In this document: in pieces, positions 2,025-4,837 of the stretch | How positions within the stretch are numbered: position 1 is the first letter of the stretch | Layout of the letters: every line of letters begins with the position of its first letter | Source of the DNA: a virus | Taxonomy: Duplodnaviria; Heunggongvirae; Uroviricota; Caudoviricetes | Virus record (IMG/VR): IMGVR_UViG_2663762648_000008 | DNA: 4,837 nucleotides | Reading direction: 5' to 3' (one strand) | Notes under the pieces: model-generated | Told to the model about the DNA's origin: nothing | The model's input: only the letters and a program-made list of their open reading frames with translations | Database searches by the model: none | Translations under genes and position numbers: made by a program

Positions 2025-2360
2025 ATGGCACATATACAACTGGTCAAACAAACCTCTTCCGGATTACTTCTCCCGGCGACGCCGGAGAGTTGCGATTTTC
2101 TGCATCAAATCAAAATAGGTGAGTGGATACACGCAGACTTTAAGCGTGTGTGTAACTACGCATTCCACAAGCGTTTTTTCAAACTCCTGCAACTGGGTTT
2201 CGATTACTGGACTCCGGTCGGTGGGGCGATCACGCCTCGCGAACGAAGTCATCTGTTTAACCGTCATAGTGACGGCACTGGTAACGAGGAAAGACCTCTG
2301 CGAGGTACGAATTCGAACCGGCCAGACGGAGGTCGCTGTCTTCACAGCTTACGAACCTGA
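2025..2360 (+). pseudogene. Truncated/chimeric ORF: ~74 well-formed N-terminal codons (MAHIQLVKQTSSGLLLPATPESCDFLHQIKIGEWIHADFKRVCNYAFHKRFFKLLQLGFDYWTPVGG...) running into the hok remnant out of frame
   Basis: Strong SD (GGAG 2014-2017) 7 nt upstream of ATG 2025. The protein-like sequence continues to ~2248, where repeat copy B begins; beyond that the frame reads hok-homologous DNA in a non-hok frame (low-complexity tail) until the stop at 2358-2360. Confidence 0.4.
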
Positions 2361-2367
2361 GGAGTAA
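2248..2367 (+). pseudogene. Hok toxin 3' remnant (encodes the C-terminal ~39 aa, ...VICLTVIVTALVTRKDLCEVRIRTGQTEVAVFTAYEPEE), lacking start codon and N-terminus
   Basis: Identical over 97 nt to hok copy A, with a C-terminus as I recall for K-12 HokD (TAYEPEE) and stop TAA 2365-2367. The upstream in-frame sequence is unrelated to hok and no hok start or SD is present. Confidence 0.8.
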
Positions 2368-2436
2368 GAGACCTGGCGGGGGAGAAATCCCTCGCCACCT
2401 CTGATGGGGCAGGCATCCTCAATGCACCCACACTTA

Positions 2437-2465
2437 ACCCGCTTCGGCGGGTTTTTGTTTTTATT
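2437..2465 (+). terminator. Rho-independent terminator (copy B)
   Basis: ACCCGC (2437-2442), loop TTCG, GCGGGT (2447-2452), then TTTTGTTTTTATTTT. Confidence 0.6.
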
Positions 2466-2475
2466 TTCAACGCGT

Positions 2476-2505
2476 TTGAAGTTTTAGATGGTGCCGGAAT
2501 AGAAT
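2476..2505 (+). promoter_or_regulatory. Putative sigma70 promoter (copy B)
   Basis: -35 TTGAAG (2476-2481), 18-bp spacer, -10 TAGAAT (2500-2505). The -10 is conserved with copy A while the -35 region has diverged. Confidence 0.4.
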
Positions 2506-2540
2506 CAAAAATACTTAAGTAGCGCGCAGGGAGAAGAGGG

Positions 2541-2588
2541 ATGGACCCCGAACAGGGGAGTGCTATTTATCTGGAAGGATTCTGTTGA
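2541..2588 (+). CDS. Putative 15-codon upstream/leader ORF (MDPEQGSAIYLEGFC), copy B
   Basis: Same SD and ATG context as copy A. Stop TGA 2586-2588 overlaps the main ATG 2588-2590 (TGATG). Confidence 0.3.
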   Translation: MDPEQGSAIYLEGFC

Positions 2589-2869
2589 TGAAAATCGAAG
2601 AATTACGTGAAATTTTTAGTGAAGATGGCCTCTATACTGTGCGCGTTGAGAATGGCGCTATTGTCAGCCACTGCCTTCCAGACTACACAATTCTGATAAT
2701 TCAGCCGTCTTTGCCAGCAGGCACGGGCGGCGCTCTCACGCATTTAAATCTGATTGGTACCAGCATCCCCCATGCACTGAAGAACAGGCCGAATGGCTCA
2801 TTCAGTGTTACCGCAGGCGCGGATGCGAGGTTAAAAAAGCCCTTAGCCTCGACTACCGTCACTGGATAA
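2588..2869 (+). CDS. Hypothetical protein, 93 aa, paralogous over its first 29 residues to the 1699 ORF; C-terminal part looks low-complexity and may not be genuine
   Basis: The track ORF 2585..2869 starts at TTG; ATG 2588 with SD AGGA 2576-2579 is the more likely start. N-terminus MKIEELREIFSEDGLYTVRVENGAIVSHC is shared with copy A, but the tail (…PSLPAGTGGALTHLNLIGTSIPHALKNRPNGSFSVTAGADARL...) is G/T/S/A/P-rich. Confidence 0.45.
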   Translation: MKIEELREIFSEDGLYTVRVENGAIVSHCLPDYTILIIQPSLPAGTGGALTHLNLIGTSIPHALKNRPNGSFSVTAGADARLKKPLASTTVTG

Positions 2870-2944
2870 TCTCCGTCAGGCTCCCTTACTCCGAACGGCC
2901 AACGCGTCCGTCCCGCACATTCCAGCAACGGATCTGGAGGTAAT

Positions 2945-4003
2945 GTGCGGGTATTACTTCGACCTGTTCTGGTACCGGAACTCGGTCTGGTTATCGTTAA
3001 GCCAGGCCGTGAATCAATGTCAGCATTCCATAACGGCAGAATACTGGTGGAGCCGGAACCAAAAAGCATGCGTAATCTGCCGTCCGGGGTCGTTCCTGCC
3101 GCTCGCCAGCCGCTGGTGGAAGACAAAACATTGCTGCCGTTTTTCAGTAACGCACGGGTGATTCGTGCTGCTGGTGGTGCTGGTGCATTGTCTGACTGGC
3201 TGTTGCGCCATATTAAATCCTGCCAGTGGCCACACGGCGATTATCATCACAGCGAAACCGTCATTCACCGTTATGGTACCGGCGCAATGGTGTTGTGCTG
3301 GCACTGCGACAACCAGCTGCGTGACCAGACATCCGAATCACTCGAGCAACTTGCTCATCAAAACCTGTCAGCATGGATGATTGACGTCATCGGTCACGCA
3401 ATAAGCGGTACGCAGGAGCGTGAATTATCTCTGGCTGAATTATCCTGGTGGGCGGTCCGCAATCAGGTGGCGGACGCGCTACCGGAAGCGGTATTACGTC
3501 GTTCGCTGGGGTTGCGTGCGGAAAAAATTCGCTCTGTGTACAGTGAAAGCGACATCATACCGGGAGAGCAGACAGCCACCAGCATACTGAAGCAGCGCAC
3601 AAAAAATATTGCGTTACTGCCTCACGTCCACCAGCAACAGAACCCACCACAGGAAAAGACGGTGGTCAGCATTGCCGTTGATCCGGAGTCACCGGCTCAG
3701 TATCTCCAGCGCCAGAAACCACAACGGGAAGAGATGCCTGTATACACGCGTTGGGTAAAAACGCAGAAATGCATGACGTGCGGTAATCAGGCAGATGATC
3801 CGCATCACATCATTGGTCATGGACTGGGAGGGATGGGAACAAAGGCTGATGATTTGTTTGTTATTCCGTTATGCCGTAAATGCCGTAACGAACTACATGC
3901 CGGAGTAAAAGATTTTGAAGAGAAACACGGCAGTCAGCTGTTGTTGCTGATTCGTTTTTTAATGCACGCGAGAAATTCGGGTGTTCTGAAGTGGAAAGCA
4001 TAA
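2945..4003 (+). CDS. DUF968/YdfU-like prophage protein, 352 aa, with a C-terminal HNH-like Cys/His motif
   Basis: Long ORF with protein-like composition; GGAGG 2936-2940 upstream of GTG 2945 (short 4-nt spacer, so the start is uncertain). C-terminal region has C-x2-C ... HH ... C-x2-C ... H (CMTCGNQADDPHHIIGHGLGG...CRKCRNELH). The stop TAA 4001-4003 is immediately followed by the rusA ATG. Confidence 0.8.
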   Translation: MRVLLRPVLVPELGLVIVKPGRESMSAFHNGRILVEPEPKSMRNLPSGVVPAARQPLVEDKTLLPFFSNARVIRAAGGAGALSDWLLRHIKSCQWPHGDYHHSETVIHRYGTGAMVLCWHCDNQLRDQTSESLEQLAHQNLSAWMIDVIGHAISGTQERELSLAELSWWAVRNQVADALPEAVLRRSLGLRAEKIRSVYSESDIIPGEQTATSILKQRTKNIALLPHVHQQQNPPQEKTVVSIAVDPESPAQYLQRQKPQREEMPVYTRWVKTQKCMTCGNQADDPHHIIGHGLGGMGTKADDLFVIPLCRKCRNELHAGVKDFEEKHGSQLLLLIRFLMHARNSGVLKWKA

Positions 4004-4384
4004 ATGACCGAGCGCATAGAATTTGTTTTACCTTACCCGCCGACGGTGAACACTTACTGGCGTCGTCGTGGCAGCACATATTTTGTATCAAAAGCCGGGG
4101 AGCGTTATCGCCGGGCAGTGGCGCTTATTGTTCGCCAGCAGCGGCTGAAATTAAGCCTGTCCGGAAGGTTGGCAATAAAAATTATTGCAGAACCACCGGA
4201 TAAGCGCCGCCGTGACCTGGACAATATTCTGAAAGCGCCGCTGGATGCGCTGACGCATGCGGGGTTGCTAATGGACGATGAGCAGTTTGATGAAATCAAT
4301 ATCGTTCGTGGTCAGCCAGTATCTGGTGGACGTCTGGGGGTGAAGATTTATCCCATAATGCTTGAAGGGCAGGTCAAAAAATGA
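4004..4384 (+). CDS. rusA: RusA-family crossover junction endodeoxyribonuclease (Holliday junction resolvase), 126 aa
   Basis: The translation contains the RusA signature PDKRRRDLDN followed by the acidic cluster MDDEQFDE, matching the catalytic Asp positions I recall for E. coli RusA (D70, D72, D91). It sits in the typical position just upstream of Q. Confidence 0.9.
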   Translation: MTERIEFVLPYPPTVNTYWRRRGSTYFVSKAGERYRRAVALIVRQQRLKLSLSGRLAIKIIAEPPDKRRRDLDNILKAPLDALTHAGLLMDDEQFDEINIVRGQPVSGGRLGVKIYPIMLEGQVKK

Positions 4385-4837
4385 AACTGGAAGATTTACC
4401 GAAATACTACTCCCCAAAATCCCCCGGCCTGACTGATGCATCGGCCTCAACGTCGAAAGATGCGCTGAGTATCACTGATGTGATGGCCGCGCAGGGCATG
4501 ACACAGAATCGGGCTGAGATGGGGGTTTCTGCGTTCCTTGGGAAAATGGGCATTAGTATGAATGACAGAGAGCGGGCAACAGAATTGCTGACAGAATATG
4601 CACTCAGTCGGTGTGATCGCGTGGCGGCGTTAAGAAAACTCCCGGCAGAAATAAAACCGGCAGTGATGCGTATTATGGCTTCGTATGCGTTTGAAGATTA
4701 TGCCCGTAGCGCGGCGAGCAAAAAACAGTGCCCCTGCTGTCACGGAAAAAAATTTATTGAAAGCGAGGTTTTTACAAACAAGATCCAGTATCCGGATGGT
4801 AAGCCGCCGGTATGGGCAAAGTGTACGAAAGGTGTGT
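4381..4837 (+). CDS. Antitermination protein Q family (lambdoid late-gene regulator), N-terminal 152 codons; 3' end outside the window
   Basis: ATG 4381 overlaps the rusA stop (ATGA). The frame is open to the window end and contains a C-x-CC-H-G-K zinc-finger-like cluster (KKQCPCCHGKKF...C) typical of Q-type antiterminators. Gene order DUF968 - rusA - Q is the canonical lambdoid nin-to-Q layout. Confidence 0.8.
   Translation, partial: MKLEDLPKYYSPKSPGLTDASASTSKDALSITDVMAAQGMTQNRAEMGVSAFLGKMGISMNDRERATELLTEYALSRCDRVAALRKLPAEIKPAVMRIMASYAFEDYARSAASKKQCPCCHGKKFIESEVFTNKIQYPDGKPPVWAKCTKGV

Follow-up and report, generated by a model that had tools for sequence, protein, structure and literature searches.

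A stretch of 97 sense codons that contains no start codon and ends one base before an intact gene raises the question of whether it still belongs to a functional coding unit or is what is left of one. The stretch lies in a DNA of 4,837 nt (the window, by which we mean the whole sequence analysed) from the IMG/VR virus record IMGVR_UViG_2663762648_000008 (Caudoviricetes). A scan of the reading frames shows that the frame is open at 2650–2940 on the plus strand without ATG, GTG or TTG, bounded by TGA at 2647–2649 upstream and by TAA at 2941–2943 downstream. It is the −1 frame of the ORF that starts at 2588, the TAA of which sits at 2867–2869, and among the stop-to-stop stretches of at least 80 codons in the six frames of the window it alone has no canonical start. 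An earlier note on this DNA had described the start-less frame and its stop just before the DUF968 gene correctly, both in coordinates and in kind. A start-less open stretch of equal length occurred in 47 of 2000 mononucleotide shuffles; by itself, the length of the frame is only mildly unusual. A search with Rfam found no non-coding RNA within 2650–2943. We find that the frame 2650–2943 is almost certainly the remnant of a separate 92-aa gene of lambdoid prophages, which one 250-bp deletion fused out of frame to the gene rem.

The identity of the frame follows from homology. The translation of 2677–2940 matches residues 5–92 of WP_032156506.1 with 85/88 identities (97%, E = 7e-64), and the start-less frame matches the profile phrog_1212 over positions 1–66 of 66 (E = 7.2e-35), covering residues 32–97 of the 97-aa translation and placing the conserved core 3′ of the deletion. 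It is these two matches, and not the length, that identify the frame as a real coding remnant, and the impression of a protein-like sequence was thus correct. Based on protein match, phrog_1212 and dN/dS, positions 2677–2943 (plus strand) correspond to the decapitated 3′ part of the 92-aa prophage gene, namely codons 5–92 plus TAA. The homology begins at residue 10 of the translation; the preceding positions 2650–2676 are wrong-frame Rem codons (EWRYCQPLP), and because these contain no stop by chance, the open frame reaches back to the TGA at 2647–2649. Apart from one substitution, P80T, at a nearly invariant proline, the remnant is undamaged, a state that would fit a fairly recent deletion. 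The 88-residue translation matches 158 protein clusters, and a profile search finds 175; nearly all of the matched clusters have 90–92 aa, begin with M-A and are Escherichia or Shigella proteins under the name hypothetical. The remnant thus resembles the 92-aa family (phrog_1212) in its match to profile and members and in its position directly ahead of DUF968/ydfU, a single base separating its stop from the GTG. The family's own start (M-A…) and upstream GGAG ribosome binding site (RBS) are missing, since the deletion extends over the spacer, the ATG and the 8 nt that follow it. Because it has neither start codon nor RBS, 2677–2943 is, judging from its sequence, a pseudogene remnant of the phrog_1212 family and not a functional member.

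The arrangement from which the remnant derives is preserved in its intact relatives, which comprise 846 complete E. coli genomes, Stx and ompW prophages and the K-12 prophage Qin. Their gene order is rem (83–87 aa), a 69-nt spacer with an RBS, a separate 92-aa gene and DUF968 (ydfU). By megablast, 846 of 5,426 complete E. coli genomes cover positions 2560–2960; among the best matches listed, the query is covered as two pieces over 651 bp, compared to 401 bp in the window, and the best listed E. coli matches fall under two “hypothetical protein” CDSs followed by DUF968. In E. coli 2011C-4251 (locus L001), the order is hokD, an 86-aa rem-like CDS (3026–3286), the 92-aa CDS (3356–3634, WP_032156506.1), DUF968, RusA and antiterminator Q. 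The intact counterparts in the phage collection are “PPompW” prophages, and in relatives the annotation ahead of DUF968 consists of one CDS for rem and a separate one for a hypothetical protein of 92 aa. The view that a gene of the 2588 region originally continued in the −1 frame is contradicted by these loci, in which rem and the 92-aa gene, the latter with its own ATG and RBS, are two separate genes.

Base-level alignments to E. coli 2011C-4251, an Stx2 phage and K-12 Qin reveal one clean 250-bp gap in the window with 97–98% identity on both sides. The junction lies between 2675 and 2676 on the plus strand and reads CACTGCC on its left and TTCCAGAC on its right. The segment absent from the window corresponds to 3117–3366 of the 2011C-4251 locus and consists of (i) 170 nt of rem, from codon 30 to the stop, (ii) the 69-nt spacer with its GGAG RBS and (iii) 11 nt of the 92-aa gene, which loses its first 11 nt, ATGGCGCAAAA (ATG GCG CAA AA). 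Since 250 mod 3 = 1, the rem stump and the stump of the 92-aa gene are joined out of frame. The deletion ends share no microhomology and do not point to a particular mechanism. The 250-bp segment is not an insertion in the other genomes, because the conserved main part of rem and the beginning of the 92-aa gene lie within it; it is also without flanking target-site duplications. The closest intact allele found is 98% and not 100% identical, so that the direct ancestor of the deletion allele is inferred and not observed. The E. coli 2011C-4251 gene (WP_032156506.1) and that of the Stx2a phage Stx2_14040 (BCI48951.1) share with the window remnant the position and the TAA-N-GTG layout at its end, whereas the remnant lacks the first four codons including the ATG as well as the upstream spacer and RBS, and carries P80T.

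Mosaic boundaries recur in the segment between hok and the 92-aa gene, also among relatives in which the latter is intact. In E. coli TUM10008 (L002, 3723–3955), rem breaks off at around codon 25 and gives way to unrelated sequence, and PGAP flags this rem as “incomplete, missing C-terminus”; this break falls within about 15 nt of the left end of the S. sonnei deletion. In phage vB_EcoS-640R1 (L005, 1320–1490), rem is altogether absent.

The 92-aa gene itself is under selection as a protein. Six intact copies (E. coli 2011C-4251, TUM10008, K-12 Qin, the Stx2a phage, vB_EcoS-640R1 and a second prophage of the S. sonnei assembly L006) yield pairwise dN/dS values of 0.13–0.47 (about 0.2) in the frame of the 92-aa gene, whereas the other two frames have medians of 1.7 and 1.1. 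Purifying selection acts on the family in this frame only. Neither Pfam nor NCBIfam contains a family that matches the 92-aa protein, and the PHROG families that it matches are without known function. An AlphaFold2 model built from 29 sequences is of moderate confidence only (mean pLDDT 66), with a small, more confident beta-beta-alpha-beta-beta core at residues about 30–75 (pLDDT 86–90) and a disordered N-terminus. Foldseek against the PDB returned nothing significant (best E = 0.25), and against BFVD a borderline match to Orf QD1 of phage N15 (E = 1.1e-3), the function of which is unknown. One phage record labels the 92-aa gene “toxin to Rem”; we found nothing in support of this label, and the literature on rem and ydfU contained nothing on the 92-aa gene.

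Two further observations concern the family as a whole. The RefSeq annotation of MG1655 has no CDS between rem (b1561) and ydfU (b1560), and an intact 92-aa ORF of the family is present there on the minus strand (L003 3307–3585; NC_000913.3 about 1644306–1644584), its stop separated by one base from the GTG of ydfU; the gene appears to have been overlooked in that annotation. The last 26 residues of the family (WIISVRLPYSERPPRPSRTFQQRIWR; alignment A4, columns 67–93; window 2860–2943) are almost invariant across some 30 members that are otherwise 70–90% identical. This C-terminus runs into the RBS and start of DUF968, and it may be under a dual constraint, as protein and as translation-initiation region.

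On the other side of the junction, alignment to intact rem assigns 2588–2675 (plus strand) to a 5′ rem stump that consists of the ATG, 29 intact codons in all (MKIEELREIFSEDGLYTVRVENGAIVSHC) and the first base of codon 30. Its upstream region contains an SD-like GGAAGGA at 2573–2579, a sigma-70-like promoter, TTGAAG-18-TAGAAT, at 2476–2505 (plus strand), proposed from its consensus match only, and a terminator-like hairpin with T-run at 2436–2453 (plus strand), which ends the truncated second hok unit and is kept in the aligned relatives. Compared to Rem of E. coli K-12 Qin (b1561, 83 aa; PF27490, phrog_340), positions 2588–2674 encode the first 29 residues of a homolog with the native upstream region and start codon retained, whereas the codons from 30 to the end are deleted and the ORF runs on in the wrong frame of the next gene. 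The result is a chimeric 93-aa ORF at 2588–2869 (plus strand; stop TAA 2867–2869), composed of 29 Rem residues and 64 residues from the +1 frame of the 92-aa gene. PF27490 (Rem) is on record for the 93-aa product among precomputed hits. The match does not extend over a full-length Rem domain (PF27490/phrog_340, about 83–95 aa): phrog_340 matches residues 1–29 only (E = 4.9e-7), in contrast to intact copies, which match along their length with E = 1e-20 to 1e-22. The 64-residue tail finds three clusters only, namely the S. sonnei cluster to which it belongs, one further S. sonnei protein that is partial, and an odd 105-aa protein of an E. coli O26:H11 draft, and the median dN/dS in its frame is the value of 1.7 given above. 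The tail has no family and is not genuine protein sequence, in agreement with the doubt that the earlier note had cast on it. The comparison suggested there, homologs of the −1-frame translation against those of the annotated product, speaks for the −1 frame, with homologs found for the former and none for the tail of the latter.

The 3′ end of the remnant leads directly into DUF968. GGAGG (2936–2940), TAA (2941–2943), one base and GTG (2945–2947) follow each other within 2936–2947 on the plus strand, and the same layout is annotated in the loci L001, L002, L004 and L005; a TAA-N-GTG arrangement of this kind is typical of translational coupling. The DUF968 (ydfU-like) gene at 2945–4003 (plus strand, 352 aa, PF06147) is intact, and the stop of the chimeric ORF lies 75 nt before it. 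On the minus strand, a 141-aa ORF at 2701–3126 overlaps the remnant and the 5′ end of DUF968; its K-12 counterpart has 137 aa (L003 3232–3645), and in TUM10008 a minus-strand CDS (WP_251122102.1, L002 3824–4030) is annotated partly over the 5′ end of the 92-aa gene. The antisense ORF at 2701–3126 is probably a shadow ORF of the coding strand.

We determined how widely the deletion allele is distributed. In the assembly collection, 965 blocks record the exact 93-aa chimera. It is carried on 679 contigs, for which Shigella sonnei is the only organism named. All eight fetched loci (L006–L013) have the identical junction and the identical 97-codon frame. A 40-mer centred on the junction occurs in no complete E. 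coli genome (0 of 5,426), nor is the junction present in the GTDB species representatives, which probably do not include S. sonnei. In S. sonnei the element adjoins ompW and is bracketed by transposase genes of the IS3 family and IS1. In two NCBI assemblies (L006, L007), the gene on record has 356 nt, not a multiple of 3, and equals window positions 2588–2943.

The window as such is a three-part mosaic of two S. sonnei prophages, with switch points at 1396–1425 and at 2247/2248. Bases 1–1425 are 100% identical to the ompW-side prophage (L012), bases 1396–2247 are 100% identical to a different prophage with the order hok-rem-DUF1367/NinB (L019, HE616528.1), and bases 2248–4837 return to the ompW-side prophage at 99.7%, resuming inside hok. 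The first switch falls where both prophages share hok sequence, and the second is a blunt jump from codon 74 of DUF1367 into hok. The mosaic accounts for the “two rem positions” of the window, for a truncated second hok without sok and for a chimeric ORF at 1983–2360; a full-length rem homolog (1699–1986, 95 aa) belongs to the segment from the different prophage. The 2247/2248 junction is absent from the complete E. coli genomes, from the GTDB species representatives and from every other collection searched, and chimeric ORFs across it are not on record; a genuine but rare rearrangement or a chimeric assembly would explain it. Positions 1–241 contain the 3′ end of an IS3-family transposase orfB (the last 74 codons, with an rve domain in full copies), which abuts prophage genes at 253–1002, and identical copies of a 284-bp orfB end occur elsewhere in S. 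sonnei loci. The one sok antitoxin RNA that Rfam detects (1124–1299) scores 112 bits and overlaps the first hok unit in its 5′ part. In the second hok copy (2248–2370), about 31 codons at the start are missing, as are the leader and sok, which leaves a dead toxin fragment.

Among the explanations that compete with a deletion-derived remnant, some involve heptamers in the overlap of the start-less frame with the 2588 ORF. Two X_XXY_YYZ heptamers, T_TTA_AAT at 2743–2749 and A_AAA_AAG at 2833–2839 (plus strand), are in phase with the 2588 frame; the latter equals AAA AAA G in the Lys-Lys-Ala codons of the 92-aa gene. In E. coli, A_AAA_AAG, the dnaX-type motif, ranks with the most slippery heptamers, and frameshift-prone heptamers without stimulators reached only 2–10 times a 0.055% background there (PMC4066793). 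Trace −1 read-through at this site into the last 36 codons of the remnant is possible. We consider it very unlikely, if somewhat less so than the alternatives below, that an occasional −1 slip at A_AAA_AAG, or a slip of RNA polymerase or replisome on the A6 run, finishes at TAA 2941–2943 and partly restores the coupling to DUF968. If it did, the accidental heptamer would act as a “savior” site and dampen the deletion's polar effect, and P0137, a protein from a public contig, gives exactly the 118-aa product in question. The A6 run (2833–2838) has rare A5 and A7 length variants in public S. sonnei assemblies, on 1–2 contigs each: P0133 (85 aa) reads …RLKSP and then stops, and P0137 (118 aa, A7, one public contig) reads …RLKKALSLDYRHW… into the native frame. 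These variants could be homopolymer sequencing errors or real slippage mutants.

A stronger form of this idea, and one that the earlier note had raised, is a programmed −1 frameshift, in which the 2588 ORF slips at T_TTA_AAT or A_AAA_AAG to yield a functional trans-frame protein that ends at TAA 2943. The two in-phase heptamers and the end of the −1 frame immediately before the DUF968 start speak for it, and the proposed search for a heptamer with downstream structure was borne out in its first half. The second half was not: the 60 nt after 2749 fold with −15.3 kcal/mol (z = −0.82) and those after 2839 with −9.2 kcal/mol (z = +0.51), no better than shuffles in either case. An SD element of the dnaX type stimulates −1 shifting from a distance of some 10 nt or more. 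The nearest SD-like motif, GAGG, ends just 2 nt 5′ of the heptamer. The window thus shares with dnaX- and IS-type signals an in-phase A_AAA_AAG and an open −1 frame downstream, and differs from them by having no downstream hairpin, no properly spaced SD-like element and no conserved overlap. The homologs are organized as two non-overlapping genes with their own starts and a 69-nt spacer, and none has a two-frame architecture. The zero-frame stretch from the junction to either heptamer has no family and a dN/dS >1, and a slip product would carry a wrong-frame middle of 52 residues (about residues 30–82), with neither a conserved overlap nor a coherent product resulting. The A6G run is already present in the intact alleles of 2011C-4251 and TUM10008, and the heptamer therefore predates the deletion; in the K-12, Stx2-phage and 640R1 alleles, it is replaced by AAG AAA or AGG AAA. 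By our count, three of the four hallmarks of a frameshift cassette that could be assessed here were missing. We give scarcely any credence to programmed frameshifting and treat A_AAA_AAG at 2833–2839 as incidental, because it has no stimulatory structure and predates the deletion.

Equally slight is the probability that a shorter product of the start-less frame is still expressed, either through initiation at a non-canonical codon (CTG 2671, ATT 2800) or because ribosomes reinitiate past the chimeric stop at 2867–2869. Near-cognate codons are present in frame within 2650–2940, limited to CTG 2671, ATT 2800, ATA 2866, ATC 2869 and ATC 2932, the conserved core (the 66 positions of phrog_1212, residues 32–97) lies downstream of the deletion, and the remnant is intact apart from P80T. 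However, inspection of the sequence revealed no Shine–Dalgarno motif before CTG 2671 or ATT 2800, a start at ATT 2800 would cut the predicted helix 39–52 of the folded core, and reinitiation at 2866–2871 would yield a peptide of about 25 aa only. The intactness of the remnant is equally expected from a recent deletion, since the S. sonnei copies are all identical.

The least probable alternative, that a single-nucleotide frameshift or a homopolymer sequencing error disrupted one gene that originally spanned 2588–2943, can draw on the 356-nt gene record of L006 and L007, treated as one frameshifted gene, and on the few assemblies with A5 or A7 at 2833–2838 (P0133, P0137), but the only length difference in the alignments is the 250-bp gap across two genes, with no indel of 1–2 nt inside one gene, the halves belong to different families (phrog_340/Rem and phrog_1212), the sequence is identical on 679 contigs, and the rare A7 variant still encodes a protein with 52 junk residues in its middle. 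The junction is not a sequencing error, because it is identical in many independent S. sonnei assemblies. Both the single-nucleotide indel and the homopolymer error that the earlier note had asked about are thereby dismissed, and of its frameshifted pseudogene the pseudogene stands and the origin does not, this being a 250-bp deletion that joined two genes.

We return to the deletion-derived remnant and to its consequences for the prophage. As the alignments show, a single 250-bp deletion in the ompW-side cryptic prophage of S. sonnei took away the last two-thirds of rem, the RBS-bearing spacer and 11 nt of the 92-aa gene. Ribosomes that start at the rem ATG would then read 29 Rem codons and continue in the +1 frame of the 92-aa gene to TAA 2867–2869, and the product would be a functionless 93-aa chimera. 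The chimera is probably translated, because the rem upstream region, the SD-like GGAAGGA and the ATG are intact; the true frame of the 92-aa gene would remain untranslated, since it has no start. Rem and the 92-aa protein would thus both be lost from this prophage, together with the translational coupling between the 92-aa gene and DUF968; the GGAGG of DUF968 itself is retained.

The decay of cryptic prophages in Shigella proceeds by deletions and IS insertions that leave fused or truncated ORFs, and the locus in the window is an ordinary example of it with nothing unusual: an IS-flanked remnant, a small internal deletion, an out-of-frame fusion and an allele common to S. sonnei assemblies. 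It is a deletion-generated pseudogene in a decaying Shigella prophage, known in kind and flagged in some annotations. The NCBI annotation as a single disrupted gene reaches the right verdict, a pseudogene, with the wrong anatomy. The 93-aa “hypothetical protein” of S. sonnei should carry a pseudogene label that describes it as remnants of two genes and not as one frameshifted gene. Because the junction is found in S. sonnei assemblies and in none of the 5,426 complete E. coli genomes, CACTGCC joined to TTCCAGAC could serve as a lineage marker for the ompW-side prophage remnant.
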